DNA of 45,978 bases from a virus. Taxonomy: Duplodnaviria > Caudoviricetes. Location of the stretch: IMG/VR virus record IMGVR_UViG_3300037424_000965, positions 1-45,978 of that record; one strand, given 5' to 3'. A program made the position numbers and the translations under genes. The notes beneath the pieces were generated by a model, which was not told where the DNA came from, searched no databases, and worked only from the letters and a program-made list of their open reading frames with translations. This document shows positions 1,376-27,007 of the stretch, piece by piece (the stretch's first letter is position 1; each line of letters begins with the position of its first letter).

Positions 1376-2446
1376 ATGAGGGCAGACATCGTTGTTGACC
1401 TGCAGTTCGGGTCGACGGGCAAGGGGGCCGTATGCGCGTTCCTGGCTAAGGAGCGGTCGGTAAGGTATAACTCTTCCATAAGGGTCCAGTCCATACAGGC
1501 TGGACATACCGTGTATTATGGGGGTAACGCGTACAAGATGCGGACCATACCATGCGCATGGGTAGACCCTGACGTCGAGCTCCTGCTCGGGCCGGGCTGC
1601 TTCATAGACAAGGCGCTCCTGATGCGCGAGATCGAGATGGTCCGTAAGGCTACTGGTAAGGACCCAAGGGACCGGCTGTTCTTAGACTACCGTGCCTTTT
1701 ACGTCACCCCAGAGGACGAGAAGGAGGAGGTTGACCGCGCGATTGAGAGGGGCATGGGCTCCACTGCACATGGCGCCGGTTCCTCCCTCATCCGTAAGCT
1801 CTGGCGTACCGACTTTAAGGACGGTAACGGCCGGGTATGTGATGACAGCTGGACCGGCCTGGCGGGCATAAGGGTGTGTGACACGATCGCGCGGATGCAG
1901 AAGCAGAGGGTATTGGTTGAGGGGTGCCAGGGCACCATGCTCTCGATACATACCAGTCCCTACTACCCATACGTTACGACGAGGGAGGCTACCGCCTCGG
2001 GGATAGCGGCCGAGGCCGGGATATCGCCCAGGGACGTAGACCAGATATTCGGGGTGTTCCGTACGCTGCCCATACGCGTCGGCGGCAACTCGGGGCCTAC
2101 AGGCTCAAAGGAGCTGACCTGGGATGAGGTGAACGAGAGGGCGGGCCGGGTCGTAGAGCCCGAGCGGACCACGGTTACCAACCGGGTGCGCCGCATATTC
2201 GAGTTTGACGACTCGGACTTCACTCACGCCCTAAGGGTAAACAAGCCTACGGGGCTGTTCATGACGTTTGCGGACTACCTGTCGCCTGGCATCTATGGGA
2301 AGACCGCCATGCGGGACGTCCTGCCTGACGCGCTCCAGAAGATTGTGGACTTTAAGGGAAGGGTTGAAAGGCTAGACAGCTCAGCGCCGGTCTTATGGAT
2401 CGGCACAGGAGAGCAGGCCGAGCACTATATAAGGACCGGGAGGTAG
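1376..2446 (+). CDS. purZ: N6-succino-2-amino-2'-deoxyadenylate synthase (PurZ family, PurZ0-like)
   Basis: Short archaeal-PurA-like fold; QFGSTGKG (Ser in place of PurA catalytic Asp of GDEGKG), AGHT, EGCQG, YPYVT, FRTLPIRVGGNSGP, TTVTNRVRR, TFADY. Confidence 0.88.
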   Translation: MRADIVVDLQFGSTGKGAVCAFLAKERSVRYNSSIRVQSIQAGHTVYYGGNAYKMRTIPCAWVDPDVELLLGPGCFIDKALLMREIEMVRKATGKDPRDRLFLDYRAFYVTPEDEKEEVDRAIERGMGSTAHGAGSSLIRKLWRTDFKDGNGRVCDDSWTGLAGIRVCDTIARMQKQRVLVEGCQGTMLSIHTSPYYPYVTTREATASGIAAEAGISPRDVDQIFGVFRTLPIRVGGNSGPTGSKELTWDEVNERAGRVVEPERTTVTNRVRRIFEFDDSDFTHALRVNKPTGLFMTFADYLSPGIYGKTAMRDVLPDALQKIVDFKGRVERLDSSAPVLWIGTGEQAEHYIRTGR

Positions 2447-2449
2447 ATC

Positions 2450-3403
2450 ATGGGCTGGGGAAAGTATGCAGGGGCACAGGGCGGGGGTAGTAGCCAGAAT
2501 AAGGGGTGGGTAGAGGAGGGGAATGCACTGGTTTACATGTTCTCGAACGACCCTACAAGATGCCGGTTCCTTACCGAGGACGTGAGCGTCGAGGACGTCA
2601 TGGCCGAGCGTAAGGTGACGCGGGAGGAGGCAGAGGACATACTCCTTACGAAGGTGTCCCAGGACAGGTGGGTCATGCCGAAGTCCATATGGGAGCACAC
2701 CATTAAGGAGGTACCTGGCAAGAGGTTCTTCTCTACCGTAGCGTGTACTGGCCGTAACAGGTGCAGCCTGTGTAAGGAGAACGACGCGGCCAAGGACACC
2801 GGGATAAGCGAGAACAAGCTACTCCCATATCCCATACGCAGGAGGTTCCTGGCGCCAGCGTACTTCTACGAGCTGAACCGCGTCCTGTTCGTGCGGGCGG
2901 CAGAGGACTTCTTCGACGGGGTGGCAGACTACGTCAACAAGCACGGGTCTGACTGCGACTTTGACATATACAAGGTCGGCAGGGGGATGGATACCAAGTA
3001 CAAGTCGGTGTTCTCCGGTAAGAGCCAGGTCATACCTGACGGCGGGTACCCGACAGTTGCCCTCTCCCCGAGGGAATTGGACACCTCCTGCTCGGAGGAG
3101 GAGCTCAAGCGCAGGCTTGACGGGGGGAGGCGGGTAGAGCAGGCCTCAGCGGTACAGAGGGGCGACAGTCCTGTGGTCGTCGCGGTCCCTGCGGCCGTCA
3201 CGGTTCCCGGTCCCGTTACGGCTTCTGTTCCCGTTCCCGTTGTGGCCCCGACAGAGGAGTTTAAGCTCCCCTTCGGACAGCATAAGGGGCTGACGTTCAG
3301 CCAGCTGGTGTCCGCCGGTAACGGCGAGTACGTCAAGTTCCTGGCCGAAAACAGCGCGGGACTGGTACAGAAGGCCGCCCGAGAGTTCCTGGGACTGGCA
3401 TGA
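2450..3403 (+). CDS. gp32-like single-stranded DNA-binding protein with C-terminal PFGQHKG domain
   Basis: RFL...WEH...CTG...CSLC Zn motif, DIYKVGRGMDTKY, Pro/Val/Ala linker, LPFGQHKGLTF domain; next to recA. Confidence 0.65.
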   Translation: MGWGKYAGAQGGGSSQNKGWVEEGNALVYMFSNDPTRCRFLTEDVSVEDVMAERKVTREEAEDILLTKVSQDRWVMPKSIWEHTIKEVPGKRFFSTVACTGRNRCSLCKENDAAKDTGISENKLLPYPIRRRFLAPAYFYELNRVLFVRAAEDFFDGVADYVNKHGSDCDFDIYKVGRGMDTKYKSVFSGKSQVIPDGGYPTVALSPRELDTSCSEEELKRRLDGGRRVEQASAVQRGDSPVVVAVPAAVTVPGPVTASVPVPVVAPTEEFKLPFGQHKGLTFSQLVSAGNGEYVKFLAENSAGLVQKAAREFLGLA

Positions 3404-4476
3404 GCGACAAGGCGGAGCGCAAGGGTGCTCCGGCCCTGTCGGTGCCGGAGCTTTACGCCAAGATGAAGCGGGAGATCGGCCTGGACGACCCAAGGCCGAT
3501 TCCTTACATCATACCGACGGGGTCTTCCGCGATCAACAGGGCGACGTACGTCGGGGGGTATCCCGGCGGCAGGATCATAGAGATATATGGCCCTGAGCAC
3601 TCGGGAAAGACCACCCTCGCCATGCACGCATGCATCGAGGCGGAGAAGATGGGCCTGCCGTTCGCATACGTTGACATGGAGACGACGCTGGACCTGGAAT
3701 ACTTCGCCAGGATGGGGCTTAAGGGCAAGCCGAACGTGGACTGGATGCACATCACCCCCGAGACGGGGGAGGACGCGTTCACGGTCCTCGGCCGGGCCAT
3801 AGATAACGGGATTAAGCTCGTAGTCCTGGACTCCGTGGCCGCAATGACCCCGAAGGCTGAGATAGAGGGCGAGATGGGCGAGGCCTTCATGGGCCTGCAG
3901 GCCCGCATGATGGGCCAGGGCATGAGGAAGTCGGTCGGCCCCGTAAGCCGGACGGACGCGACGGTTATATTCATCAACCAGATTCGTATGAAGATAGGCG
4001 TCGTGTTCGGCAACCCGGAGACTACGCCCGGCGGTGCGGCCCTCAAGTTTTATGCCTCGATAAGGCTTGACATACGGCAGGTGGGAGACCCAATCCTCGA
4101 TGACGCGGGTGAGCCCATTGGGAAGTATAGCAAGGTCAAGGTGGTAAAGAACAAGGTCGCGCCCCCAATGAGGCAGTGCCAGATACCGATAATCTGGGGT
4201 CGCGGGATTGCCGAGGAGTACGAGTTGTTCGACGAGCTCGTGACCCAGGGGATACTGACCAAGACGTCCAGTTACTTCACGTATAGGGACCAGAGGGTCA
4301 ACGGGAGGGTGAACGCGCTCGCCATGGTGCGGGAGCGGACGGCCGAGATGAGGGCGGACCTGGACCGGAAGCTGGCGTCCCCGGACGCGGCCCCAGAGAA
4401 GCCGGTCCCGAAGCAGAAGGCTAGTATAGCCGAGATCGCGCTGGAGGAGGGTTCCATTGGACCAGAGGAAGATTAG
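3400..4476 (+). CDS. recA: RecA/UvsX recombinase
   Basis: GRIIEIYGPEHSGKTT, LDSVAAMTPKAEIEGEMG, FINQIRMKIGVVFGNPETTPGGAALKFYASIRLD. Confidence 0.97.
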   Translation: MSDKAERKGAPALSVPELYAKMKREIGLDDPRPIPYIIPTGSSAINRATYVGGYPGGRIIEIYGPEHSGKTTLAMHACIEAEKMGLPFAYVDMETTLDLEYFARMGLKGKPNVDWMHITPETGEDAFTVLGRAIDNGIKLVVLDSVAAMTPKAEIEGEMGEAFMGLQARMMGQGMRKSVGPVSRTDATVIFINQIRMKIGVVFGNPETTPGGAALKFYASIRLDIRQVGDPILDDAGEPIGKYSKVKVVKNKVAPPMRQCQIPIIWGRGIAEEYELFDELVTQGILTKTSSYFTYRDQRVNGRVNALAMVRERTAEMRADLDRKLASPDAAPEKPVPKQKASIAEIALEEGSIGPEED

Positions 4477-5008
4477 GGCCCTGCGGAACGTCCGCAGGTT
4501 CAACTTCGAGCACTGCAATAGGTATCAGAGCGTAGCCGAACACTCGTACTTCGTGGCGGTGCTTGCCATGGAGCTGGCCGTGCGAGCCATGATGCCGCCG
4601 CCTAAGGTGGCGTCGGTAATTGAGGCGGCCCTCATGCACGACGTGACCGAGGCCGTGACCGGAGACATACCGTATTTGGTACGCAGGTCGATGGACAGGG
4701 TGGCGCTCGCCGAGATCGAGCATAGGGCGGCAAACGAGCTTAAGGTTGACGCCTCGTACCCGCTGGACGTGATCTGGGTGGTAGACTATGCCGACGCGCT
4801 CGAGCTTGCCATGTATCTTAAGGAAGAGAGGGAGTCGGGCAACCGGTCCCTCATTGACATCGAGCGGGAGACGCGGCGGCGGCTGGTTGATGTTGACGCG
4901 GGCGGGGAGCCTTCCGCATTCTATAGCTTTGCGGTGTCCATATTGGGCGGTCCCGAGGAGTGGGAGCTGATAGGGACGAAGGAGATGCCGCATGAGCTCA
5001 AGCATTGA
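4457..5008 (+). CDS. HD-domain deoxynucleotide phosphohydrolase (YfbR/DatZ family)
   Basis: R..F...SVAEHS, ALMHDVTEAVTGDIP, YADALE; TTG start with GGAGGAGG RBS; same operon as purZ. Confidence 0.8.
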   Translation: MDQRKIRALRNVRRFNFEHCNRYQSVAEHSYFVAVLAMELAVRAMMPPPKVASVIEAALMHDVTEAVTGDIPYLVRRSMDRVALAEIEHRAANELKVDASYPLDVIWVVDYADALELAMYLKEERESGNRSLIDIERETRRRLVDVDAGGEPSAFYSFAVSILGGPEEWELIGTKEMPHELKH

Positions 5009-5673: not shown

Positions 5674-6149
5674 CCAGGCAGTGTAGGGAGGTGCTCTCCT
5701 CCTGTGACTTCCCGGTTACCGCCGCGCGGGACGTCGAGCCGTTCCTGGCCAGGTGTACGGTCGCGCAGGTCGTGTCCCTCGTCTGGGGCAAGGACCCGGA
5801 GGGTAAGCACGAGGCGTCATGGTTCGCCCCGTTCTTCATTAACGGTTACGTAAGGTCCAAGGTCTCCATCCCGTGCTCGTTCGACCAGCAGTTCTGGGAG
5901 GCATATGACTGGGTTGCCCAGGCGATGCCCGAGGACTTCTCTGCGTTTGACCTGCCGTCTATTGACGAGATGGCGAGGGACATGAAGCGCATGAGGAGGG
6001 CGGTGGGCGCCAGTAAGGTGCTGACCGTCCCCTACGTCTTCAAGGTCTTCCAGGGGATGGAGCCGACGCGCGAGGCCGTCAGCAACTCGACTGCGATAGG
6101 CGGGTTCGAGATAGGCAGCAGGGGCGCAAAGCCTAGGGGGAATGCATGA
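5670..6149 (+). CDS. Hypothetical protein
   Basis: Translationally coupled on both sides; phage-typical codon usage. Confidence 0.65.
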   Translation: MTRQCREVLSSCDFPVTAARDVEPFLARCTVAQVVSLVWGKDPEGKHEASWFAPFFINGYVRSKVSIPCSFDQQFWEAYDWVAQAMPEDFSAFDLPSIDEMARDMKRMRRAVGASKVLTVPYVFKVFQGMEPTREAVSNSTAIGGFEIGSRGAKPRGNA

Positions 6150-6844
6150 ACTATATGGGCGGGAAGTGGCGGCAGGGCCCGAAGATCGCGGAGGTCATCG
6201 CTCCGTACCTCAAGCCGGGAGGCCGTTACGTCGAGCCGTTCTGTGGCGCGATGGGGTCTGCCTCGCACGTAGCCGAGAGGTCTCCGGGCCTGAGAATGGA
6301 GCTTTCCGATATAAACCCGGCGCTGATCCGGACGTGGCAGGCCGTGCTCTTCGGGGGGTGGGTCCCGCCCGACGTCGTCACCGAGGAGGAGTACCGCTGG
6401 CATAAGGACGTACGGGACCCGACCGACCCGATGACCGCCTACGTCGGATATGGGATGAGCTTTGGCGGGAAGTGGTTCGGCGGGTATGCCAGGAACGGGC
6501 ATGGTACGGACTACGCCATCAACGCAAAGCGGTCCCTCCTCCTCAAGGCGTCCCTCCTCCTCAAGGCGTGCAGGTATGAGGACGTAAGGGGGCCGGGCGT
6601 CTACTATTTAGACCCTCCATATGCCGGGCGTACCAAGGCCCATGGCGTTAAATTCGACAGCAAGAGGTTCTGGGACTATGCCCGCGAGCGGGCTGGGGAG
6701 GCGACGGTCTTCGTGACTGAATTTACCGCCCCAGACGACTTCATCCCGGTTCATTCTTTCGGTGATACGGTGGTAAGGCATCATGCGGGGCGGGGAAATG
6801 ATGGTACGGTTGAGTGTATTTTCATGCATAGGAGCCAGGCGTGA
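6146..6844 (+). CDS. Dam-like (D12 class) DNA N6-adenine methyltransferase
   Basis: NYMGGK, YVEPFCGA (motif I), SDIN, YLDPPY (motif IV). Confidence 0.88.
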   Translation: MNYMGGKWRQGPKIAEVIAPYLKPGGRYVEPFCGAMGSASHVAERSPGLRMELSDINPALIRTWQAVLFGGWVPPDVVTEEEYRWHKDVRDPTDPMTAYVGYGMSFGGKWFGGYARNGHGTDYAINAKRSLLLKASLLLKACRYEDVRGPGVYYLDPPYAGRTKAHGVKFDSKRFWDYARERAGEATVFVTEFTAPDDFIPVHSFGDTVVRHHAGRGNDGTVECIFMHRSQA

Positions 6845-9096
6845 CCCTAGTTGAGCTGATGGAGTCTGAGGGGATGACCCTCACCAGGCGCGGGTCCAGG
6901 TGGTGGGCGTGCTGCCCGTTCCACGGCGACACCTCACCGTCCCTGTCCGTGTCCGAGAGGGACGGGGGGCAGGTCTGGCACTGCTTCGGGTGCAAGAGGG
7001 GCGGCGGCGCGGTCGAATACCTGTCTGAGGTGCGGGACGTCCCCGAGTTCGAGGCTCGGCGGGAGTGGGCCGCCCTCAACGGGTGGGACGTCCCGGACGG
7101 CGACAGGGAGCTCCTCACCAACGCGGTCGAGGGCCTTTCGGGTCATCAGTTCTTGCTTGACCGTGGGATCAGCGAGGAGACGCGCAGGCGGTTTAGGGTA
7201 GGGTACTGTGAGGATTATGGAACCCTGCTCGAGAGCGCCAACCTGTCTGAGGATCGGGCTATAGAGCTCGGGCTGTTTGACGTGTCCGGGTGCATCGTGT
7301 ACCCGTTCTACGACAGGGACGGCGTGTATAAGGTCGCGGCCCGCAGGGTGGACGTCAAGGAGTATAGGACGTCCCCCGAGACCTCCAAGTTCTTCCGCCT
7401 CGGCCTGTGGGGAATGCACCTCCTGCGGGGTGAGGAGGCATGGATATTCGAGGGTTACCACGATGCGATGGTAGCCAGGCAGGCCGGTTACCAGGCGGTC
7501 GCTGCGTGTGGCACTGACATGTCTCCCTCACATTGGGAGGACCTTAGGAGGGCCGGGGTTAAGCGGGCCGTCATAGTACCGGACGGGGATGAGGGTGGCA
7601 GGGTGTGGCTGGAGAAATCGGCGAGGTCTGCCCCCAAGGACGTGTCTCTTGAGTTGGTCGTGTTACAGTCTGGCGACCCGGACGACGCAATACTGGCCGG
7701 TACGTTCAAGTCACTGCCGAGGCTCAACCCGTTCGAGTGGTACGTAACGTATAAGTGGGGCAGTCCGTCTGGATTGGCTGAGAAGTGCCGCATGCTCCAG
7801 GAGGCTTCCCCGGTTTATTCGAGGATGCCAGCGCAGGACAGGGCCGCCGCCAGGGCCTGGTTCATCGGGGCGTTCGGGGATGACGAGTCGCTGTCGTTCC
7901 TGGCGGACCCGGTGCAGAGGGACGTGGAGGCCGAGAAGGTGGTGATCGCCAACTGCCTGTATTCTGGTACGGCGAGGCTTGAGGCTTTACAGGAGCTGGA
8001 GCCGTCATACTTCACCGGAGAGCGGCATCGGAAGGCGTTTGAATTGATACGTGACGTTGAGGCTACCCCACAGCTCCTGCAGGTAGAGATGGGTATTGAC
8101 TTTTCGGATAGGGCTGACCTGACGAACGCCAAGAGGTACGTGGATAGGGTGGCCCTATACGGGCGCGCCTCTAAGGTGTCTGAGGTACTGCGGAACTCCG
8201 ACCCGGCGAACGTCGGCGAGATCATAGAGCGCTTATATTTAGTAACCGATAAGGTTATACCGATTAGCGGCGTCGACCAGGTCCATAGGGTGATGGCGTC
8301 GGTAAATGATAGAGTAGCCAACCCGAGGGCTCCTGGGGTTGAAATCTGCGGCTTCCCGTCATTACATAAGTCCCTCCTCGGGTGGCGCCCGAAGAAGCTG
8401 ATCCTGATCTCTGGGAACTCGGGGCACGGGAAGACTACCACTGCATGCAACTTCGTCAATAGCTTCGTAGACGAGTGGCCGTCGCTGTTCGTGAGCCTTG
8501 AGATGACCGACGAGGAGATCATGGAGAAGATGATTGCCATCAGGTCCGGCATACCGTCGATGAAGATGATTACCGGCTCTATGGAGCAGTTCGAGTATGA
8601 TGAGGTGGCTAAGGCCGCCGACTCCCTTATGCACGGCAACCTGGAGATAGTTACGGGGGTAACCGACTTACATCGCATAGTGGCTATATGTAAGGCTCAT
8701 GTGATGCGCCGGAAGGTCAGGTTCATAGTCATCGACTACCTACAGCTGATAACTATAGGGGGTTCAAGAGAGGAGCGGTGGGAGCAGTTGGCCCTCATAA
8801 CTAAGACCTTAAAGACCCAGGTATGCTCGGCCGGGCCGACGGTAATCGCCCTCACCCAGCTTAAGAAGAGCGCGCTGAACTCGGACGTCCCGGACGCGGC
8901 CGACCAGGCCGGGGCCTATGCTATGCTGGCGGACGCCGATGCGGCCATGACGGTGAGGAAGGTAGACCCCAGGGACACCAAGGACGGGAGCAACTACCTG
9001 ATAAACTTAAGCAAGAACAGGTTCGGGTGGGACGAGGTGCAGGTTCCCTGCCTGTTTGATCGCAATTCGCAGAGAATAGAGGAGCTGACGTCATGA
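6841..9096 (+). CDS. DnaG-type primase / DnaB-type helicase fusion
   Basis: CHC2 Zn finger (CPFHGD...WHCFGC), TOPRIM (FEGYHD, PDGDEGG), Walker A GNSGHGKTT, SLEM, IDYLQL, ALTQL. Confidence 0.93.
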   Translation: MTLVELMESEGMTLTRRGSRWWACCPFHGDTSPSLSVSERDGGQVWHCFGCKRGGGAVEYLSEVRDVPEFEARREWAALNGWDVPDGDRELLTNAVEGLSGHQFLLDRGISEETRRRFRVGYCEDYGTLLESANLSEDRAIELGLFDVSGCIVYPFYDRDGVYKVAARRVDVKEYRTSPETSKFFRLGLWGMHLLRGEEAWIFEGYHDAMVARQAGYQAVAACGTDMSPSHWEDLRRAGVKRAVIVPDGDEGGRVWLEKSARSAPKDVSLELVVLQSGDPDDAILAGTFKSLPRLNPFEWYVTYKWGSPSGLAEKCRMLQEASPVYSRMPAQDRAAARAWFIGAFGDDESLSFLADPVQRDVEAEKVVIANCLYSGTARLEALQELEPSYFTGERHRKAFELIRDVEATPQLLQVEMGIDFSDRADLTNAKRYVDRVALYGRASKVSEVLRNSDPANVGEIIERLYLVTDKVIPISGVDQVHRVMASVNDRVANPRAPGVEICGFPSLHKSLLGWRPKKLILISGNSGHGKTTTACNFVNSFVDEWPSLFVSLEMTDEEIMEKMIAIRSGIPSMKMITGSMEQFEYDEVAKAADSLMHGNLEIVTGVTDLHRIVAICKAHVMRRKVRFIVIDYLQLITIGGSREERWEQLALITKTLKTQVCSAGPTVIALTQLKKSALNSDVPDAADQAGAYAMLADADAAMTVRKVDPRDTKDGSNYLINLSKNRFGWDEVQVPCLFDRNSQRIEELTS

Positions 9097-9602
9097 CATA
9101 CTGCTTTACAGGATACCCACTAAGCGGGAAGAGCACGCTGGCTCGCAAACTGGCTGTAACACTTAACGTCGGGTGCTTATCTACGGGGGCGCTCGCGAGG
9201 GCCCTGGGGATGGGTCTGGAGCCGTCCATCAAGGAGTTGGACATATCCCTGGAGCACGATAGGGAGATAACGGCCGGGGCTCTCAAGGCCGCTGCTGACT
9301 GCGAGGTGCTGGACGGGTTCCCGAGGTCCATTGACCAGGTCTCGGCCCTTAGGACCCAGGGCACGGCCTTCACGGTCGTGTTTGTGACGGAGAATCCGTT
9401 GATCGTGTTCGACAGGATAAGCGATCGGGCCAGCAGGGAGGGGAGGCCAGAGGACGCCCCGGATGTGGTGGCAGGCAGGCTGAGGCGATCTATGGAGTTT
9501 AAGAGGGAGCTTGAAGACATACTGCTCACGGGCGAGCTGGTGATCTTTGACTCCTCTCGCGGCTACGGCGACCTGGTTCATGAGCTTGGGCTAGAGCCGT
9601 GA
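9093..9602 (+). CDS. Adenylate-kinase-family nucleoside monophosphate kinase (short LID)
   Basis: GYPLSGKST P-loop, STGALAR, LDGFPRSIDQ, R.ED....RL. Confidence 0.85.
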   Translation: MTYCFTGYPLSGKSTLARKLAVTLNVGCLSTGALARALGMGLEPSIKELDISLEHDREITAGALKAAADCEVLDGFPRSIDQVSALRTQGTAFTVVFVTENPLIVFDRISDRASREGRPEDAPDVVAGRLRRSMEFKRELEDILLTGELVIFDSSRGYGDLVHELGLEP

Positions 9603-10111
9603 TCCGCCGTGCCATCGGGAAGATGATAGAGTGGGCCATAGGTTACAGGCATGAGATAACCGTGGTCCTGGCCCCAGGGGCCAAGATGCCCTTCCATAAG
9701 TATGACGGCGACGCCGGATACGACCTCCATAGCCTGGAGGATGTCGGCATACCTGGAGGGTCTACCAGGGACGTAAGCTCGGGGGTTTACCTTGACATGC
9801 GGGAGCGCATCTGGCTAGAGATAAAGGCCAGGAGTTCGACGCTCCGGGTCAAGGGACTTGAGGTGGTGGACGCCGTGATCGACCGCGATTATCGGGGCGA
9901 GATGAGGGCCTCGGTACATAACCCGACCGGTTGTGTAATTATGATTAAGGCTGGTGAGAGGGTGGTACAGGTAGTACCTCACAGGCTGATACCCCTCACG
10001 TTCTCTGAGGGCGAGCTCACCAGGTCGGAGCGCGGGACGTCCGGGTTCGGCTCCACGGGCGGGCATGGGGAGTTAACGGGCGGTGGTGACGCAGACACGG
10101 TACGCAGATGA
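9599..10111 (+). CDS. dut: Trimeric dUTPase-fold dNTP pyrophosphatase
   Basis: All five motifs: AGYDL, RSS, VIDRDYRGE, GERVVQ, RGTSGFGSTG. Confidence 0.92.
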   Translation: MIRRAIGKMIEWAIGYRHEITVVLAPGAKMPFHKYDGDAGYDLHSLEDVGIPGGSTRDVSSGVYLDMRERIWLEIKARSSTLRVKGLEVVDAVIDRDYRGEMRASVHNPTGCVIMIKAGERVVQVVPHRLIPLTFSEGELTRSERGTSGFGSTGGHGELTGGGDADTVRR

Positions 10112-13100
10112 GTAGATATGTCGACCTACACCTACACGGGGCGCACTCGCTCCTTGACGGGTTGATCAAGCCGGTTCCGCTGATGGAAAAGTGCAAGACC
10201 CTCGGGCGGGACGCGGTGGCCCTGACCGACCACGGCTCCCTCGGGGGCCTGGTCGAGTTCCATAAGGCTGCAAACAAGGCCGGGATAAAGCCGCTCCTCG
10301 GGTGCGAGTTCTATCACGACCGTGGGGATCAGGTCAACTACCACCTGATCCTGATAGCGCGCAACCGAGAGGGGTATCGGAACTTGGTCAGGCTCAACAA
10401 CCTAGCCCAGGGCAACATCTACAAGAAGCCCAGGATAACCGATGAGATGATTAGGTCTCACGGGTCCGGGCTGGTCCTGTTGACTGCGTGCGTTCAGGGG
10501 TACCTCGCCTCTACCGCGATCAGGGGCGTCCCGGACTGGCAGTGGTTCAAGGCTGCGCAGGGGTGGGTCGATGCGGCATACCTTGAGGTGCAGAATCATG
10601 GGATATCGGATGAGGAGCTAGTCCGGGACGCGTTCATATACTCCGGGCTCCCGTGCGTCGGGACGGTTGACGCCCATTACCTGAACGCCCAGGATGGGGG
10701 GGCGCACGAGGTCGGCCTCGCGGTCTCCATGAACAAGATGGCGGGCGAGTTTAAGTTTCCAGGGAGCGGATATCACGTCCGTGATGAGTCTGAGATCAAG
10801 CTCCCCCCGATGGTGCTGGACGCCACGGCCGACGTGGCCGCCACGGTGGAGGTCTACGACCTGGGGTACGACACCTGGCAACTGCCGGAGGTAGACCTTG
10901 ATCCAGGTCATGAGCTGGCCGAGTTGGAGTTTAGGCTTAACGACTATCTAGTCAGCAGTTTTGGCTTTGAAGCCGTTCAGTATGACCCGGATGGCACGAT
11001 ACTGTCATACCTCGAGAGGCTGACATATGAGTTCAAGGTAATCCGGGATAATGGGTTCCTCCCTTACTTCAAGATCGTCGCTGAGATTTGCAGGTTCGTC
11101 GATGAGGACCTCAAGAGCCTGAGGGGGTGGGGGCGGGGGTCGGCCGCCGGGTCCCTGGTCGCGATGCTCATGGGGATAACGAAGATCGACCCCATCCGGT
11201 GGGGCCTATATTTCGAGAGGTTCCTAAATCCAGACCGCATAAGCCCGCCGGACATCGACCTGGACTTCAAGCCTGAGGACCGACAGCCGGTGCTGGAGTT
11301 CATGCGCAACAGGTGGGGCCGCGTCTACCAGATCGGAACGTACACGACGCTCGGTCCCAGGGAGACCATCCTGTCCTGCTCTCGCGCCATGGGGGTCCAA
11401 ACTTCCCTCGCCGACTTCGTGCCGGTGGAGGCCCCGGTCCCGCCGATCTCCGAGCTGATGGGGCGCGAGGCCTTCGCCAAGAGGGTCGCGGTAGAGGGGA
11501 ACGAGGACTTCGTGGCCGTCTGCATGTCGCTGGAGGGCCTGCCCAGGAACCCGTCGGCCCATGCGTCGGGGGTGGTCATTGACGTAGCCGACGAGGTGCC
11601 GGTCCGGATATCGAAGTCGGGCGCCAACGCCGGGATACCGGTTACGGCCTATGACATGTACTCCCTCGAGGACCTGATGCTGACCAAGATAGACGTGCTC
11701 GGCGTGAACGCGCTGTCGATCATCGACCGGGCCTGCAGGGCCGTCGGGGTTAGGGTGGACGACTTCCCGCTCGGGGACGCCCGCACGTTCGAGGCGTTCA
11801 ACTCGGGGAGCACCCTGGGGGTGTTCCAGTTCGAGACCCACTCGTTCGCGAAGCTCATCCGCGACCTGCACCCGGATTCGTTCGAGGAGTTGGTTGACCT
11901 AAACACGCTTGGGCGGCCGGGGTGTCTCGAGTCCGGGATGACCGAGGAGTATATGGACCGCAAGTTCGGGAGGAGGGAGAGGCTACCGATACACCCGAAG
12001 CTGGCCGACAGCCTGGGGCATCAGGGCCTGCCGCTGTTCCAGGAGCAGATGATGCTCATAGCCCGAGAGCTTGCCGGGTTCACCATGGCCGAGGCCGACA
12101 TCCTGCGGAAGGCCATCGGGAAGAAGCAGAAGGACCTGTTCGAGTCGATTCACGTGAAGTTCGTCGAGGGGTGCGGGACGACCAGTGGGGTCCCGATAGA
12201 GGAGGCTGAGGGGGTCTGGGCCACGCTCGAGAAGAGCGCCCGGTACACGTGGAACCTGTCCCACGCCGTGGCGTACACGCTGGTCTCGTATTGGACTATG
12301 TACCTGTCGGCTAACTACCCGGTGGAGTGGTTCTGCGAGCTCCTGAACGGGGCGGCGGCGGGGAACGACTCCTCCGTCAGGAGGAGGGCCCTCCTGTCCG
12401 AGTGCAGGAGGCGCGGGGTGCCGGTCTCAAGGCCGAACGCCAACCTGTCAGGCAGGGAGTACACCGTGTCCGGCGGGACCGTTATGCTCGGGCTGTCCGG
12501 CATAAAGTACGTGGGCGAGAAGGCCGTGGAGCACATCCTGGCGGCTAGGGGGTCCGGCAAGCCGTTCATGGGGTCGGAGGACCTCAAGAATAGGTGCGGG
12601 GCCAAGAACGTGAACTCTAGGGCCGTGACGTACCTGCTCAAGGCCGGGTGCTTTCCGGACGAGTACGAGCCCAGCCGGGACGATGAGATGGAGGCCCTCG
12701 GGTACTCGGTCTCCGGTAGGGCGATAGATCAGGGCTTCCTCAGGTTCGTGGAGGGCGCGGGCGAGGTCCTGGACGTGAAGGCCATCACTTCCAAGAAGGG
12801 TGACCCGATGTGCTTCGCGTCGGTGGACTTCCATGATGAGATACGGTCGGTAGTCGTGTTCCCGAGGCAGTACTCGGAGTACCGCGAGGTGCTGGTCAGG
12901 GGCGCCGTACTCGGCTTCTCGACCAGGGCTGGGGAGGATATACTCGAGGGCCTGTTCGACCCGTGCAACCTGGACGAGCTCATCATGGAGATACCTGAGA
13001 GGAAGGCCGACGAGTTCCTTTCCTTCTACCCATCGTGCGCGGGCCTGCCGACGGTGAGGGCGGCTGGGTACGACCTGGCCAGCGTCCCGCTCACCCCGCA

Positions 13101-13179
13101 GATGGTCGAGTTCACGGCGGCCGAGTTCGGCGTCGAGAAGATGATTACTCGGAAGTCGTTCCAGGGACACGGAAGGTAA
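10108..13179 (+). CDS. dnaE: Family C DNA polymerase III alpha subunit with intact PHP domain
   Basis: HLHGAHSLLDG, TDHG, DAHY (PHP); GRGSAAGSL, FERFLNPDRISPPDIDLDF, KIDVLG, GVFQFE, FQEQMM, C-terminal OB fold. Confidence 0.97.
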   Translation: MSRYVDLHLHGAHSLLDGLIKPVPLMEKCKTLGRDAVALTDHGSLGGLVEFHKAANKAGIKPLLGCEFYHDRGDQVNYHLILIARNREGYRNLVRLNNLAQGNIYKKPRITDEMIRSHGSGLVLLTACVQGYLASTAIRGVPDWQWFKAAQGWVDAAYLEVQNHGISDEELVRDAFIYSGLPCVGTVDAHYLNAQDGGAHEVGLAVSMNKMAGEFKFPGSGYHVRDESEIKLPPMVLDATADVAATVEVYDLGYDTWQLPEVDLDPGHELAELEFRLNDYLVSSFGFEAVQYDPDGTILSYLERLTYEFKVIRDNGFLPYFKIVAEICRFVDEDLKSLRGWGRGSAAGSLVAMLMGITKIDPIRWGLYFERFLNPDRISPPDIDLDFKPEDRQPVLEFMRNRWGRVYQIGTYTTLGPRETILSCSRAMGVQTSLADFVPVEAPVPPISELMGREAFAKRVAVEGNEDFVAVCMSLEGLPRNPSAHASGVVIDVADEVPVRISKSGANAGIPVTAYDMYSLEDLMLTKIDVLGVNALSIIDRACRAVGVRVDDFPLGDARTFEAFNSGSTLGVFQFETHSFAKLIRDLHPDSFEELVDLNTLGRPGCLESGMTEEYMDRKFGRRERLPIHPKLADSLGHQGLPLFQEQMMLIARELAGFTMAEADILRKAIGKKQKDLFESIHVKFVEGCGTTSGVPIEEAEGVWATLEKSARYTWNLSHAVAYTLVSYWTMYLSANYPVEWFCELLNGAAAGNDSSVRRRALLSECRRRGVPVSRPNANLSGREYTVSGGTVMLGLSGIKYVGEKAVEHILAARGSGKPFMGSEDLKNRCGAKNVNSRAVTYLLKAGCFPDEYEPSRDDEMEALGYSVSGRAIDQGFLRFVEGAGEVLDVKAITSKKGDPMCFASVDFHDEIRSVVVFPRQYSEYREVLVRGAVLGFSTRAGEDILEGLFDPCNLDELIMEIPERKADEFLSFYPSCAGLPTVRAAGYDLASVPLTPQMVEFTAAEFGVEKMITRKSFQGHGR
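13145..13171 (+). promoter_or_regulatory. Putative phage-sigma promoter TTAC-N16-GGACACG in the end of dnaE
   Basis: TTAC 13145-13148, GGACAC 13165-13170, ~20 nt upstream of next start codon. Confidence 0.55.
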
Positions 13180-17081: not shown

Positions 17082-17357
17082 ATGGAGAAACGAGAGGTGT
17101 TGAAAGGATTCGCGATAGTTGTCGCGGATCGCGGATTCGTGTACGCGGGAAACGTTGAATCTGACGAACGGTTCTGCGTAGTTGAAAACGCTCGCAACGT
17201 CCGCAAATGGGGAACGACGAAAGGGCTCGGACAACTCGCTCTTGAGGGCCCGACCGCCGAAACGGTGCTTGACGAAGTCGGAACCGTGCGAATCCCGGCG
17301 CGGGCGGTGATCAGCATCATTGATTCAGAGGCCGCTAAGTGGCCGCGCTTGAAGTAA
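17082..17357 (+). CDS. DUF6948-like small phage protein
   Basis: ADRGFVYAG...NARNVRKWGTTKGLGQLALEGP; AGGAGG RBS. Confidence 0.75.
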   Translation: MEKREVLKGFAIVVADRGFVYAGNVESDERFCVVENARNVRKWGTTKGLGQLALEGPTAETVLDEVGTVRIPARAVISIIDSEAAKWPRLK

Positions 17358-17548
17358 CGCTGGACGGCTCCGGCTACGGCTCCGGCTACGGCTCCGGCTA
17401 CGGCTCCGGCTACGGCTCCGGCTACGGCTCCGGCTACGGCTACGGCTACGGCTCCGGCTACGGCGACGGCGACGGCTACGGCTACGGCGACGGCTACGGC
17501 GACGGCTCCGGCGACGGCTACGGCGACGGCGACGGCGACGGCTGGTAA
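17339..17548 (+). CDS. Gly-Ser/Tyr/Asp repeat peptide
   Basis: (GS/GY/GD)n ORF overlapping the DUF6948-like gene end. Confidence 0.55.
   Translation: MAALEVTLDGSGYGSGYGSGYGSGYGSGYGSGYGYGYGSGYGDGDGYGYGDGYGDGSGDGYGDGDGDGW
17363..17542. repeat. 6-nt tandem repeat GGC(TCC/TAC/GAC)
   Basis: About 30 hexamer units visible directly. Confidence 0.95.
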
Positions 17549-18184: not shown

Positions 18185-18592
18185 GTGGACCGGATGAGCC
18201 CGGAGGCCAGGTCGCGCGTGATGCGCGCGATCCGGTCCAGGTGGACCCGGCAGGAGAGGCTCTTTGCCTCCCTCTGCTCCGGGTGGGAGCGCGGGACGCG
18301 GGAGGAGAGGAACGCCGACTTCGTGTTCCCGCTCGCCCGCGTGGCCGTCTTCCTTGACGGCGACTTCTGGCACGGCCGGAACGTCCCGGACTCCCTCCCG
18401 GCGAGGTGGAAGGAGAAGCTGGCCCGGAACTCGGCCCGCGACTCCGTGAGCCGCGCCTGGCTGGAGGGGCAGGGGTGGGAGGTCGTGTCGGTCTGGGAGT
18501 CTGACTTCACGTCCGACCCGGAAGGGTGGGTATCTGAGGTCATGTCTAAGGTAGAGGCGCTCGAGGAGTGCAGGAGGGTGTGGAATACATGA
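18185..18592 (+). CDS. vsr: Vsr-like (very short patch repair) endonuclease
   Basis: SPEARSRVMRAIRS, ADFVFP, VFLDGDFWHG, WKEKLARN..RD, GWEVVSVWE. Confidence 0.85.
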   Translation: MDRMSPEARSRVMRAIRSRWTRQERLFASLCSGWERGTREERNADFVFPLARVAVFLDGDFWHGRNVPDSLPARWKEKLARNSARDSVSRAWLEGQGWEVVSVWESDFTSDPEGWVSEVMSKVEALEECRRVWNT

Positions 18593-18861: not shown

Positions 18862-19337
18862 CGTCCGTCATAGTAGATGGGCATAGGGTCCAGGTGGACC
18901 CACAGGACGTCCCGGCCGTACTCTCCCTGAGGCTCAGGGTGGTAGACAAGACCAGGCATAGGAAGGTTAAGCTGTACGTGGAGCATTGCACTAGGGAGGG
19001 CGGCAGGATGGTACACAGGGCCCTCCATAGGATACTGCTTGGGGTCAGTGATCCTGACATACTGGTAGACCACAGGGACGGTGACGGTTTGAACTGCAGG
19101 AGGTCGAACCTCCGAGAGACGGACCGTATGGGAAACTCCCAGAACGCGTCCATCCGTGCGGACAATACGAGCGGGTACCGTGGGGTCACCTTGCGGTCGC
19201 CGGGTAGGTGGCAGGCGTCGATCCAGTGTAAGGGGGTCAGGAGATATCTCGGCTCGTTCTCATCCCCGGAGATTGCCGGTGAGGCGTACGTCGTTGCGGC
19301 ACGTAGGCTCCATGGCGCTTTCATGCGGGTAAGGTGA
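18858..19337 (+). CDS. HNH-AP2 homing endonuclease
   Basis: VDHRDGDGLNCRRSNLR, NTSGYRGV, WQASI, YLGSF....A.EAY..AA..LHG.F. Confidence 0.9.
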   Translation: MTSVIVDGHRVQVDPQDVPAVLSLRLRVVDKTRHRKVKLYVEHCTREGGRMVHRALHRILLGVSDPDILVDHRDGDGLNCRRSNLRETDRMGNSQNASIRADNTSGYRGVTLRSPGRWQASIQCKGVRRYLGSFSSPEIAGEAYVVAARRLHGAFMRVR

Positions 19338-19349
19338 AAGGAGTAAACT

Positions 19350-19496
19350 ATGTCGTATAAAACCGTAAAGCAGGAAGGCCCAGACTGGCTACCGAGAGCG
19401 GTAGTTTGCAGGGTGGACCGACTTAAATGTCTCGGGAATTCGATTGTCCCTCAAATTGCAGAAATGATTTTTAGGGAAATAAAGGAGGCGATATGA
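19350..19496 (+). pseudogene. 48-aa ORF containing only C-terminal motif X of a C5-cytosine methyltransferase
   Basis: Manual translation MSYKTVKQEGPDWLPRAVVCRVDRLKCLGNSIVPQIAEMIFREIKEAI*; AAGGAG RBS. Confidence 0.6.
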
Positions 19497-19969
19497 CCGA
19501 CGCTGAGAAGCTGGGAAAGGCGCGAGAGGCGCTGGAACTTGCACGAGAAGGATTGTCGTCATCTAAATACGACCATGTTATCCAAGGTGAAATAGATGCC
19601 GCCATTTCCATCCTCTCCACCTCCTCTAATCCGTTGCCGATTGACCGGGATGTGGCGGAGAAGTTTTGCAAAACGGTAAAAGTTATCCAGCAGGTCGAAG
19701 TAAACGGCGTTAAAAAACCAGATGAAATAAGATACCCCTTCGATACGCTTGACAACATAGAAAATATGACAATGTTTCTTATGCGGCACCGTGAAGCGGC
19801 TGTCAAAGCGGAAGGGGAACGATTTGTTACATTATTTAACGCGGCTCTTGACGCTTCTACGAATAAGTTGAGAGCGTCTGATAAATCGTTACATTTGGTT
19901 ATGTCAGACCCATTTTGTAACCGTATGAGTAAAAGTATTTTAGCCCTCATGCAAGGAGACGGGAAATGA
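19493..19969 (+). CDS. Hypothetical protein (AT-rich island)
   Basis: AAGGAGG RBS, ATGA coupling. Confidence 0.6.
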   Translation: MTDAEKLGKAREALELAREGLSSSKYDHVIQGEIDAAISILSTSSNPLPIDRDVAEKFCKTVKVIQQVEVNGVKKPDEIRYPFDTLDNIENMTMFLMRHREAAVKAEGERFVTLFNAALDASTNKLRASDKSLHLVMSDPFCNRMSKSILALMQGDGK

Positions 19970-20184
19970 TAGTGAAAGACAAAAACTTAAAGAAACTGAT
20001 TAACGTTTCCAGAAAAGAATGTCCAACATTCGACTGTTATTGGCCTAGGGTTAATCCAGGTATTTTTAATCAAGGTATTGGTTATCGGTCTTTTGGTGAT
20101 AAGCGCGACAAAGAGTGGCTATGTGGTAGCCGTGAAATTGACGGATGCCCGAAAAATCCGAAAGTGAAAGGAGACGGGAAATGA
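19966..20184 (+). CDS. Small Cys-containing hypothetical protein
   Basis: Bracketed by 17-nt direct repeat that supplies RBS and start. Confidence 0.65.
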   Translation: MIVKDKNLKKLINVSRKECPTFDCYWPRVNPGIFNQGIGYRSFGDKRDKEWLCGSREIDGCPKNPKVKGDGK

Positions 20185-20342
20185 GCCGCGCTCGTAAACA
20201 TTGCACTCATCCAGAAAACGTCGAGTGCCTATCAGGGTACAACGGAGATTGTCTCAACTTGGGTCCGTGTCATAACCGTGATGAGTACGCGGGTAAAGGG
20301 CGGATCAAGAAAGCGCCGGAATATGGGAGGGTTAGGAAATGA
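20181..20342 (+). CDS. Small Cys/His-rich hypothetical protein
   Basis: Start at ATGA 20181 after AAGGAG. Confidence 0.55.
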   Translation: MSRARKHCTHPENVECLSGYNGDCLNLGPCHNRDEYAGKGRIKKAPEYGRVRK

Positions 20343-20605
20343 GCGAACCGAAAACCTGCGAGACGTGCGGAAGTGGCGGAAACGCTAAAGATGGACGGTT
20401 TGATAGTGGAAGCTCAGAAAATAATATACGGTCCGATTGGGTACTCGAATATTGGGTTAAGACTAGACATCGCCCACGCCGCCCACGAAGCAAGGAGGAA
20501 AGGATGAGCGATGAGTGCCGAAAGGCGTTTGAAGAGTGGGCGTTTGAAAATAAGAATGATATATACTTGACGATATACATCAAGCGGTGTTATACTTTAG
20601 GGTGA
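20339..20605 (+). CDS. Hypothetical protein, possibly fused remnants
   Basis: CETC N-terminus; internal AAGGAGG RBS before MSDECRK. Confidence 0.4.
   Translation: MSEPKTCETCGSGGNAKDGRFDSGSSENNIRSDWVLEYWVKTRHRPRRPRSKEERMSDECRKAFEEWAFENKNDIYLTIYIKRCYTLG
20567..20596 (+). promoter_or_regulatory. sigma70-type promoter for packaging operon
   Basis: TTGACG(20567-72)-18 nt-TATACT(20591-96) with extended TG. Confidence 0.6.
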
Positions 20606-21159
20606 TGGAAAGTATCAAGGAACCCAGGGCGCCAGCCAAGAAGACGTGGACTCAGTTTGCACAGTTTTACATAGAACAGGACTTTAGGGACGCCATGAGG
20701 GCCTATCTCAGGGCGTTCAAGCGCTGTAAGTCGGAGCACGCGGCCAGGGTTAGGTCGACGAAGCTCCTGGCGCGCCCCGAGGTACAGGACATTGTATCTA
20801 AGGAGCTTGAGAGGGTCCTGGCCGAGAATAGGCGCCCCATAGAGAAGCGCGTATTTGATGTATGGACGGTACGCGCGTTTTATGATCCAACCGACATCTT
20901 AAACTTAGACGGTACCTTAAAGATAACTGAGGAGGAGCTTCGCGAGAAGGGCCTTCACGTCTGTATAGACTCGATAGTGCGTAAGGTGACGCAGTTTGCA
21001 ACTACCGTTGAATATAAGCTTGCAGACAGGGACGAGGCACTGGGGATGCTCCAGCAGTACGTCCAGATGATCAAGCCGCAGACACAGCGGCACGTGGTGT
21101 CAGGGTCCATAGTGACGTACATACCGGATAACGGCCGGGGAGAGGGGAGGAGGGATTGA
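20605..21159 (+). CDS. terS: Terminase small subunit
   Basis: FAQFYI...AMRAY...STKLLARPEV, AFYDPTD, YKLADRDEALGML; precedes terL. Confidence 0.85.
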   Translation: MESIKEPRAPAKKTWTQFAQFYIEQDFRDAMRAYLRAFKRCKSEHAARVRSTKLLARPEVQDIVSKELERVLAENRRPIEKRVFDVWTVRAFYDPTDILNLDGTLKITEEELREKGLHVCIDSIVRKVTQFATTVEYKLADRDEALGMLQQYVQMIKPQTQRHVVSGSIVTYIPDNGRGEGRRD

Positions 21160-22547
21160 CCGAGATACGCCCGCAGTCAGGCCCGCAGGAGCAGTTCCTG
21201 TCCTCGCCCGCCGACATAGCGATTTACGGCGGGGCGGCTGGTGGCGGGAAGACGTACGCCCTGCTCATGGAGCCGCTCAGGCACGTCGGGAACGGGGACT
21301 TCGGGGCAGTATACTTCCGCCGTACGATGCCGCAGATAACCTCGGAGGGCGGGGCTTGGGATAAGTCGTACGACCTGTATGGGAGCGCGGGAGCCACGAT
21401 GATCCAATCCCCGAACCTACAGGCGCAGTTCCCGTCCGGGGCGAAGGTAAGCTACAGCCAGCTACAGTATGAGGACTCAGTCCATAATTGGCAGTCCTCA
21501 CAGATACCGTTGATACTCATGGACGAGCTGACGCAGTTTACCAGGCGCCAGTTCTTCTATATGCTGAGCCGTAACCGCTCCACGTGCGGGGTGAGCGGGT
21601 ACCTCAGGGCGGCGACGAACCCCGACCCCGACTCTTGGGTCAAGGAGTTCATCTCCTGGTGGCTGGACCCGGAGACCGGGTACGCGATACCCGAGAGGTC
21701 CGGTATAATTAGGTGGTTCGCCAGGCTTGATGATGAGATCGTCTGGGCTGGCTCAAGGGAGGAGCTCCTCTCGATTGACCCCAGGGCTAAGAACCCCATG
21801 TCCGTAACCTTCATACCCTCCGACGTGTATGACAACAAGATCATGCTCGGCTTGGACCCGTCGTACATATCGAAGCTTGAGTCGCTGCCGAGGTGGGAGA
21901 GGGAGAGGCTGCTCGGCGGTAACTGGAACTCGCGGCCGAGCGCCGGTACCATATTCTCAAGGTCAGACTTTAAGGTGGTGGACGTCACCCCCAGGGCCGA
22001 GGCTACCGTCAGGTACTGGGACAGGGCAGCGACGGAGCCGTCCGAGGCCAGCCCGGACCCGGACTGGACTGCAGGCGTGAGTATAAGCAGGTGCGCCGAT
22101 GGCCTGTTTTACATAAACGACGTCGACAGGTTCAGGGCCAGGCCGCTTGGGGTGAAGGTAAGGATAAGGGCCGTGGCGTCCCAGGACGGGCGCGCCACGG
22201 ACATAGGGATAGAGCAGGACCCAGGGTCGGCCGGGGTCTCGGAGGCGGACGACCTCGTATTGTCCCTGGCCGGGTACAGCGTGAGGGCCTATAGGCCCAC
22301 CGGATCGAAGGTCAACAGGTGGAAGCCCCTGTCCGCGCAGGCCCAGGCCGGTAACGTCCTCCTCGCCCGTGGCCCCTGGAACGAGGCCTTCATATCGGAG
22401 CTTTGCGCGCTTACCGACAGCCCCGGCGACTACGGGCATGACGACCAGGCGGACGCTGCGGCGGGGGCGTTTAACGCGCTGCAGTCCGGCCCGCCCTCGA
22501 ACCCGAAGGTAGGGGCGGCGCTTGCCGCCCGCAGGAGGCCAAGTTGA
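21156..22547 (+). CDS. terL: Terminase large subunit
   Basis: YGGAAGGGKT, DELTQF, ATNPD, YWDRAAT, DWTAGV, HDDQADA. Confidence 0.96.
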   Translation: MTEIRPQSGPQEQFLSSPADIAIYGGAAGGGKTYALLMEPLRHVGNGDFGAVYFRRTMPQITSEGGAWDKSYDLYGSAGATMIQSPNLQAQFPSGAKVSYSQLQYEDSVHNWQSSQIPLILMDELTQFTRRQFFYMLSRNRSTCGVSGYLRAATNPDPDSWVKEFISWWLDPETGYAIPERSGIIRWFARLDDEIVWAGSREELLSIDPRAKNPMSVTFIPSDVYDNKIMLGLDPSYISKLESLPRWERERLLGGNWNSRPSAGTIFSRSDFKVVDVTPRAEATVRYWDRAATEPSEASPDPDWTAGVSISRCADGLFYINDVDRFRARPLGVKVRIRAVASQDGRATDIGIEQDPGSAGVSEADDLVLSLAGYSVRAYRPTGSKVNRWKPLSAQAQAGNVLLARGPWNEAFISELCALTDSPGDYGHDDQADAAAGAFNALQSGPPSNPKVGAALAARRRPS

Positions 22548-24924: not shown

Positions 24925-24931
24925 TTGGGGG

Positions 24932-24960
24932 TTGACCCCAGGCCATGCCTGTGTTATAAT
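24932..24960 (+). promoter_or_regulatory. sigma70-type promoter for head operon
   Basis: TTGACC(24932-37)-17 nt-TATAAT(24955-60) with extended TG. Confidence 0.75.
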
Positions 24961-24991
24961 GGAGTTTTCCCTATCAGGGGAGGGGCAGTAT

Positions 24992-26296: not shown

Positions 26297-26310
26297 GGGG
26301 AGGGTAAGCC

Positions 26311-26994: not shown

Positions 26995-27007
26995 GGAGAC
27001 CTCGGTC

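Follow-up and report, generated by a model that had tools for sequence, protein, structure and literature searches.

A PurZ-type synthetase with a GTP-type donor pocket at the head of the replication operon of a DnaE-encoding phage

The phage genome and its replication operon

The window (the whole stretch of DNA analyzed, 45,978 nt; IMG/VR record IMGVR_UViG_3300037424_000965) is a whole phage genome, with direct terminal repeats (a 127-base end overlap) and terminase, portal, and tail genes. Statements about absent genes rest on the end repeat, because CheckV completeness is only 56%. A replication operon on the forward strand begins with a purZ-type synthetase gene (1376..2446), followed by a conserved 317-aa ORF (2450..3403) without a family match, which by position and look only might be SSB-like; recA (3400..4476); a DatZ-like HD hydrolase gene (4457..5008); two small ORFs; a DnaG-DnaB primase-helicase fusion (6841..9096); an adenylate-kinase-like NMP kinase, a candidate dZMP kinase (9093..9602); dut, for a DutZ-like trimeric dUTPase-fold enzyme that is a candidate dGMP supplier and dATP remover (9599..10111); and dnaE, for the family C polymerase Pol III alpha (10108..13179), the only polymerase found.

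The synthetase belongs to an uncultured clade with the signature QS[IV]QAGHT (82 rows once 90% duplicates and short rows were removed). Genes for purZ, recA, the HD protein, primase-helicase, dut, and dnaE are present in all five whole relative records, and adk in four; most clade loci of sufficient length for gene order to be seen have the same operon. The exceptions are L015, a 268-kb contig; L032; and L019 and L031, which have no HD gene and contain a weakly NDT-like ORF. No PolA or DpoZ was found in the window or in any of the five whole relatives, nor was there a match to MazZ, DmtZ, or NDT among the window ORFs scanned.

With PurZ, phages can build their DNA from 2-aminoadenine (Z) in the place of adenine. 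Also inside the operon is a gene for a Dam-like N6-adenine methyltransferase (6146-6844, forward strand), which would be odd in a predicted Z-genome; none was found in the five whole relatives, and L019 has another Dam in a similar place. L019 is a clade member with the donor motif TFAN; besides its weak NDT/DUF4406-like ORF (4513-4914) it has a thymidine-kinase-like ORF, possibly a DmtZ-like swap. The NDT-like Pfam match (6.7e-5) is under the cut-off, and comparison of the ORF with gene 53 of Ghobes gave no alignment (E 21).

Sequence, fold, and motifs of the PurZ-type enzyme

The 356-aa ORF at 1376-2446 is stop-free, with a start that aligns with those of its homologues. It is a real gene rather than a chance ORF: it matches PF00709 (2.8e-40); its best curated model is NF038379 (PurZ; 9.8e-66), although at 221.9 of 300 bits it falls below the cut-off; 77 of the 120 matches listed are homologues at 45-70% identity; and the AlphaFold model has a pLDDT of 93. 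Scores for the PurA models are also below cut-off (TIGR00184, 151 of 396 bits; NF003295, 200 of 368 bits). The closest fold is that of Pyrococcus horikoshii PurA with GTP (Z 44.6, rmsd 1.8, 329 aligned residues), tied with PurZ0 7VF6 (Z 44.3, rmsd 1.8, 336 aligned), with phiVC8 PurZ (Z 42.7, rmsd 2.1, 326 aligned) and S-2L PurZ (Z 39.4) behind.

The motifs quoted in an earlier sequence-only reading are all present as it gave them. These are the P-loop GSTGKG (residues 12-17; 1409..1426), with S13 at the position of E. coli D13; QAGHT, as part of a QSIQAGHT loop (residues 38-45; 1487..1510) with Q41 at the N38/N49 position and the catalytic H44 kept; RTLPIRVGGNSG (residues 229-240; 2060..2095), with P232, I233, and V235 as in PurZ and PurZ0; the aspartate loop TTVTNRVRR (residues 265-273; 2168..2194), in which R270 corresponds to E. 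coli R303 and phiVC8 K267; and the donor-base motif TFADY (residues 297-301; 2264..2278), in which D300 corresponds to E. coli D333. A second donor-pocket motif, IGTG (2399..2410), has T344 as in PurA and PurZ0, not an aromatic residue. All are on the forward strand.

Phylogenetic placement

An IQ-TREE phylogeny of 76 of 278 rows, spanning the FastTree groups, has starred branches for the window-enzyme clade (100/99), for PurZ (100/100), for PurZ0 (100/100), and for all Ser/Gly types against PurA (100/99); a quick tree under a mixture model agrees, with a starred support of 98 for the clade. The window enzyme is outside the strict-PurZ clade (phiVC8/S-2L/SH-Ab) in both trees, and the actinophage PurZ0 clade forms without it. 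With S13 in place of the catalytic Asp13, the PurA cut-offs unreached, and a position outside the PurA clade, the enzyme is PurZ-type and not PurA, as had been claimed. The suggestion of a distinct clade, for which a phylogeny had been proposed as the check, likewise holds, since the enzyme clusters neither in ATP-type PurZ nor in PurA.

What the trees do not support is the description of this clade as early-branching or intermediate. It is nested in a broad radiation of Ser-type rows, both cellular and uncultured, and leans weakly toward PurZ (forks 82/89 and 80/90), with backbone forks at 80-82 bootstrap. Forcing it together with PurZ0 was marginally rejected (AU p 0.043, LG+G4), and forcing PurZ and PurZ0 together to its exclusion was also only marginally worse (AU p 0.042, LG+G4). 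Membership in PurZ0 proper is not supported either. Phage sequences have been divided into just PurZ0 and PurZ (PMC12884076, sections 19, 20, and 24); judged from its sequence, the window enzyme is a third branch beside these.

Ser/Gly-type PurZ-like genes are also found in many bacterial and DPANN archaeal genomes (L104-L182). In all five bacteria checked, the gene is additional to a normal PurA; in three incomplete archaeal genomes it is the sole match. Because Ser-type homologues are common in cells that also hold a normal PurA, Ser at the D13 position is by itself no proof of a Z-genome. Two sister-group Ser-type enzymes (L037:1573-3204 and L090:5273-7987) lie near family B DNA polymerases and may represent Z-systems with another polymerase family.

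Acceptor and donor pockets

Individual residues were compared in an alignment of the window enzyme with the record sequences of PurZ from phages phiVC8, S-2L, SH-Ab 15497, PMBT28, ZP6, and Bm1; PurZ0-type enzymes from Archimedes, Ghobes, Wayne, Goodman, Hiyaa, and Parvaparticeps; the BpsS-140 enzyme; and E. coli PurA. On the acceptor side, S13, F11, P232, I233, V235, W249, T265, and R272 are shared with PurZ and PurZ0. The set F11, S13, P232, I233, V235, W249, T265, F298, and Y301 corresponds to phiVC8 F12, S14, P233, I234, V236, W252, T262, F295, and Y298, and most of these have been named as discriminators between PurZ and PurA (bioRxiv 2025.10.22.683976, section 4); V235 corresponds to the 2'-OH gate V241 of S-2L PurZ (PMC8342488). 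Acceptor-side Y244, P144, G256, and S273 of phiVC8 have no match in the window enzyme. Against strict PurZ, with its Ser at D13, the dGMP-pocket residues differ only at N40/N49, here Q41; N49 lines the dGMP base pocket (PMC8342488), and the literature searched yielded no paper on Asn38.

Strict PurZ also has an adenine pocket, N-F-x-N/Q with G-aromatic-G (NFCN, NFAQ, or NFAN and G-F/W-G in the ATP-type enzymes of phiVC8, S-2L, and SH-Ab), in which N305, F306, Q308, and G335 of S-2L PurZ read the base (PMC8342488). The window enzyme does not have this pocket: its T297-F-A-D300 and I-G-T344-G agree with TKLD and ISTG of E. coli PurA, and with SFAD and LGTG of Ghobes PurZ0, and the pairing of S13 with an Asp at the D333 position is that of strict PurZ0. 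In E. coli PurA, D333 reportedly controls GTP specificity, D333N leading to specificity for XTP rather than ATP (the 1994 work of Kang et al.), and PurZ0 is said to use GTP as donor (that of Tong et al. in 2023). An Asp at the D300 position would clash with adenine N1 (NKxD-type pocket chemistry). Because D300, T297, and T344 match the PurA/PurZ0 pocket, and D333 sets GTP specificity, GTP is the likely phosphate donor predicted for the window enzyme, and the sequence-only reading was right in assigning its pocket to the GTP type. For PurZ, ATP is given as the donor in the introduction of PMC12884076; the wording in its section 24 (“ATP and GTP, respectively” for PurZ0 and PurZ) contradicts this and is taken to be a slip.

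How unusual these residues are was judged from the 82 clade rows and from 234 Ser/Gly-type rows beyond the clade (one 83-row cellular clade thinned to 1 in 8). Position 41 is Q in 74 clade rows and N in eight. That QAGHT is unusual, as had been noted, is true with respect to the solved enzymes, all of which have N, but not more widely, since Q is present in 45 of the 234 outside rows; by sequence, several lineages have acquired QAGHT, and it is the longer QS[IV]QAGHT that marks the clade. Position 270 is R in 72 clade rows, L in seven, and K in three; outside, Arg (107) and Lys (100) together account for 207 of 234. The Arg equivalent to E. coli R303 is indeed kept, but its counterpart in phiVC8 is not Leu, as the earlier reading had it: it is Lys267 (also given in PMC8342488), with Lys in three PurZ0s as well, and Leu is found in S-2L and SH-Ab 15497. 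An argument from R270 for altered ribo versus deoxy selection loses its footing here, since Arg or Lys is what most rows have and the deoxy-selection features of S-2L (V241 and the loop insertion that follows; here V235 and W249) are kept throughout the clade.

Position 300 is D in 63 clade rows, N in 17, and H in two; outside, it is D in 192 of 234, with [TS]FxD in 102. From these frequencies, TFxD and the R303 equivalent are common and ancestral, and thus less special than they first appear: the GTP-type pocket is the ancestral state, commonest in the whole Ser-type radiation, and does not mark a special intermediate. It is also labile, as F298 and T14 resemble PurZ and Asn or His replaces D300 in the rows just given. 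Asp and Asn change seven times at this position on the clade tree (motif columns omitted), with at least four changes forced by starred branches. Close natural pairs, such as P0001 with TFAD and P0003, a clade neighbor 65% identical, with the full NFAN motif, may therefore expose a switch from GTP to ATP; two further natural neighbors, P0024 and P0028, have TFAN. In the P-loop, position 14 is T in 57 clade rows, as in PurZ, where PurZ0 and PurA have E. Ancestry shared with PurZ was considered as the source of T14 and rejected, since E is found in 13 of the 82 rows, including basal ones, and in sister rows.

Comparison with known systems

The best cultured match to the window enzyme is of the PurZ0 type, at 35% identity. 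With PurZ0 (Gordonia phages Ghobes and Archimedes, PDB 7VF6; Arthrobacter phage Wayne) it shares Ser at D13, the PIRV loop, [TS]-x-x-D, G-T-G, and a DutZ-like partner, but it has GSTGKG rather than GSEAKG, QSIQAGH rather than AGPNAGH, R270 rather than K, and a separate clade, with an HD hydrolase instead of DmtZ and DnaE instead of DpoZ-1. With PurZ (phiVC8, 6FM1; S-2L, 7ODX; SH-Ab 15497; 30-34% identity) the common features are the Ser13-Thr14 P-loop, dGMP pocket residues, F298/Y301, and a DatZ-like neighbor; it differs in its donor motif (TFAD/GTG, not NFxN(Q)/G-aromatic-G), clade, and subthreshold NF038379 score, and no MazZ, DpoZ, or PrimPol was found in the window. The short archaeal PurA (P. 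horikoshii 5K7X/2D7U; NF003295) resembles it in its short fold, R303, and D333-type GTP pocket, but it has Asp where the window enzyme has Ser, and is in a separate clade. In terms of sequence the enzyme is thus in neither strict family, PurZ nor PurZ0, and is predicted to work in a PurZ0-like way.

In the published picture, the PurZ0 and PurZ groups have their own helper sets and a family A DpoZ (PrimPol in S-2L; PMC12884076, PMC8599892). Within a literature search that stopped short of the principal papers in Science and Nature Microbiology, none was found joining PurZ with DnaE.

Partner enzymes

The best PDB match of the HD protein is S-2L DatZ (1.9e-6), and its phage matches are led by DatZ genes of Z-phages. 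All metal ligands are kept, but F15 and F17 stand at the W20 and I22 positions, and P79 and K116 are not kept; both the W20-I22 and the Y20-T/S22 DatZ signatures are absent (comparison residues from PMC8065100 and bioRxiv 2025.10.22.683976, section 6). Because it is without these signatures, P79, and K116, the protein is perhaps a dNMP phosphatase; it may be a dATPase or a dAMP phosphatase.

Dut has the motif RSS[TA]L, like DutZ, where ordinary enzymes have RSGL. Its 192 phage matches include 110 from Arthrobacter, 18 from Microbacterium, six from Gordonia, and five from Streptomyces phages, mirroring the PurZ0 phage set; 39 of the 40 matches listed are Arthrobacter or Streptomyces phages of PurZ0 type, although the first, phage KLEA5, has the ordinary RSGL. 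It groups with the DutZ of Ghobes, Archimedes, and Hiyaa (96/94, starred) in a tree with only three outgroup rows. DutZ acts on dGTP and dATP, giving dGMP and dAMP (PMC12884076, section 20), and dutZ is a partner in 98 of 98 PurZ0 genomes (PMC12884076). The window thus has, by sequence, the dutZ partner of the PurZ0 type, with dmtZ and DpoZ-1 not found, and from the strict-PurZ set a DatZ-like HD protein without W20-I22, with no MazZ match in the scanned ORFs and no PolA. Relatives with G+C contents of 31-61% have the DutZ-like and DatZ-like genes together.

Palindrome distribution

Certain G/C-only palindromes are missing from the window: CCCGGG (0 of 25 expected), GCCGGC (0 of 27), and CCGCGG (1 of 30). 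In all, three of 16 G/C-only but none of 70 A/T-containing palindromes are purged (Fisher 0.005, in a post hoc test of words that are not independent); 4-mers give no signal (G/C-only O/E 1.01). Ghobes has a similar pattern (2 of 14 and 0 of 50), SH-Ab purges 2 of 11 and 1 of 75, phiVC8 1 of 10 and 3 of 66, and S-2L has no signal (0 of 13 and 0 of 52). Unlike the window, pooled GC-rich phages without PurZ purge four of 48 G/C-only and 17 of 181 A/T-containing words, and in each of five DnaE phages that have no PF00709 gene (analyzed up to 60 kb in two cases) two to 11 A/T-containing words are purged. The relatives are mixed: one (G026) purges none of eight, and in two others (G027 and G028) 7-8 A/T-containing words are purged as well. 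The pattern would fit Z-DNA in the window phage, as supportive but not decisive evidence.

A cultured phage with a similar gene layout

Bacillus phage vB_BpsS-140 (MH884512.1; DSM 29700; genome, PMC6375668) is the only cultured match found to the window gene layout, with a PurZ-type gene, recA, primase, adk, dut, and DnaE in similar order. It differs in that its enzyme has NFAN and is sister to PurZ proper (100/99, starred; 31% identical to the window enzyme), its DnaE is split in two ORFs, absent from the GenBank CDS list, and no HD gene was detected; gene 52 was considered as an HD protein and rejected. Of 12 phages, BpsS-140 is the only one whose DNA was uncut by DraI (PMC6483233); HindIII, PstI, and BamHI also failed to cut, KpnI cut poorly, and EcoRI cut fully (PMC6483233, S3 Table), against 21 DraI, six HindIII, four PstI, three BamHI, four KpnI, and 24 EcoRI sites. 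DNA containing dZ blocks DraI, HindIII, and PstI, and EcoRI only partly (PMC12944874, supplement). The digests thus fit what Z-DNA would be expected to give, with full EcoRI cutting counting against it. The digest passages of PMC6483233 draw no link to Z, and adenylosuccinate goes unmentioned in the genome paper; the supplement trees of PMC12884076 may include BpsS-140. Since its enzyme sits in another PurZ branch, BpsS-140 bears on the pairing of DnaE with Z in general.

Possible functions

A role for the window enzyme in a Z pathway, acting on dGMP, is very probable, and given such a role a preference for GTP is quite probable. The fuller reading toward which we lean is that it condenses dGMP with aspartate at the expense of GTP, thereby opening Z-DNA synthesis in a phage whose only detected polymerase is DnaE. 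The DutZ-like enzyme would convert dGTP to dGMP and dATP to dAMP, standing in for the missing MazZ; the PurZ-type enzyme would make dSMP from dGMP; host PurB would release dZMP, as in the described Z pathway (PMC8342488); and the phage NMP kinase with host kinases would carry dZMP to dZTP. The HD hydrolase would remove an adenine deoxynucleotide (dATP or dAMP), and DnaE would copy the genome from a dATP-depleted pool.

The dGMP step could proceed as proposed with ATP or dATP as donor, or with a promiscuous pocket, making the enzyme functionally an ordinary PurZ. F298, the stacking residue of ATP-type PurZ, is present in all 82 clade members, T14 is PurZ-like, the P0003 neighbor has NFAN, and both the repeated D/N changes and the weak PurZ-side placement (80/90) would suit such an enzyme. 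Ghobes PurZ0 has the same Phe, however, D300, T297, and T344 all have the GTP-type state, and the expected clash of Asp with adenine N1 also makes this unlikely. The acceptor site might instead be widened by the QSIQ loop and R270, so that GMP or IMP is used besides or instead of dGMP: the bulky QSIQ replaces a Gly-rich xGPN loop beside the acceptor, and R270 is Arg as in PurA. Against this, none of the 82 clade members deviates in V235 or in the PurZ-type insertion with W249, the ten clade members with L or K at 270 (L018 and L022 among them) and the eight with N at 41 have the same operon, and the partner genes are for deoxynucleotide enzymes; we think it quite unlikely.

There might also be no Z-genome, the enzyme acting on nucleotide pools (dIMP salvage to dAMP, or as an AMP-boosting auxiliary gene), or only partial Z. 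The lack of DpoZ and MazZ, the Dam-like methyltransferase, the HD protein without DatZ signatures, and the spread of Ser-type enzymes in cells and other contexts (L015, L032, L104, L106) point that way; with the loss of D13, which makes PurA-like IMP chemistry unlikely, DutZ-like and DatZ-like genes co-occurring in relatives, the palindrome pattern, and the BpsS-140 digests on the other side, it seems very unlikely. Beyond the GTP-driven dGMP step that we favor, a possible but doubtful extension is that the phage stands for a third, independent line of Z-genomes, in which the PurZ branch runs on GTP, DutZ-like and DatZ-like helpers are combined with a phage kinase, the family C DnaE has become selective for Z, and the donor switch from GTP to ATP that sets PurZ apart from PurZ0 has been replayed several times. 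If true, a helper-mixing DnaE branch would mean that a bacterial-type replicase can copy Z-DNA, which would be relevant to building Z-organisms, and closely related natural enzymes between which Asp and Asn have been exchanged repeatedly would allow the proposed transition from GTP to ATP to be tested.

Other features of the genome and its relatives

Clade enzymes also occur beyond the operon: that of L015 is in a large phage, and that of L032 is beside an NMP kinase and a ribonucleotide reductase. The window terminase, portal, and a 413-aa ORF (20587-28249) have no match in the five relatives at E 1e-4, and phages of 33-61% G+C whose head modules differ share the Z/replication module. The sequence is present in two sediment DNA sequencing runs, with no RNA run among those listed. 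A Gly-Ser-Gly-Tyr/Asp repeat ORF is found at 17339-17548 and a Vsr-like endonuclease at 18185-18592; from about 19300 to 20600, the ORF list has a run of short ORFs, their codons richer in AT, in a genome of 61% G+C.
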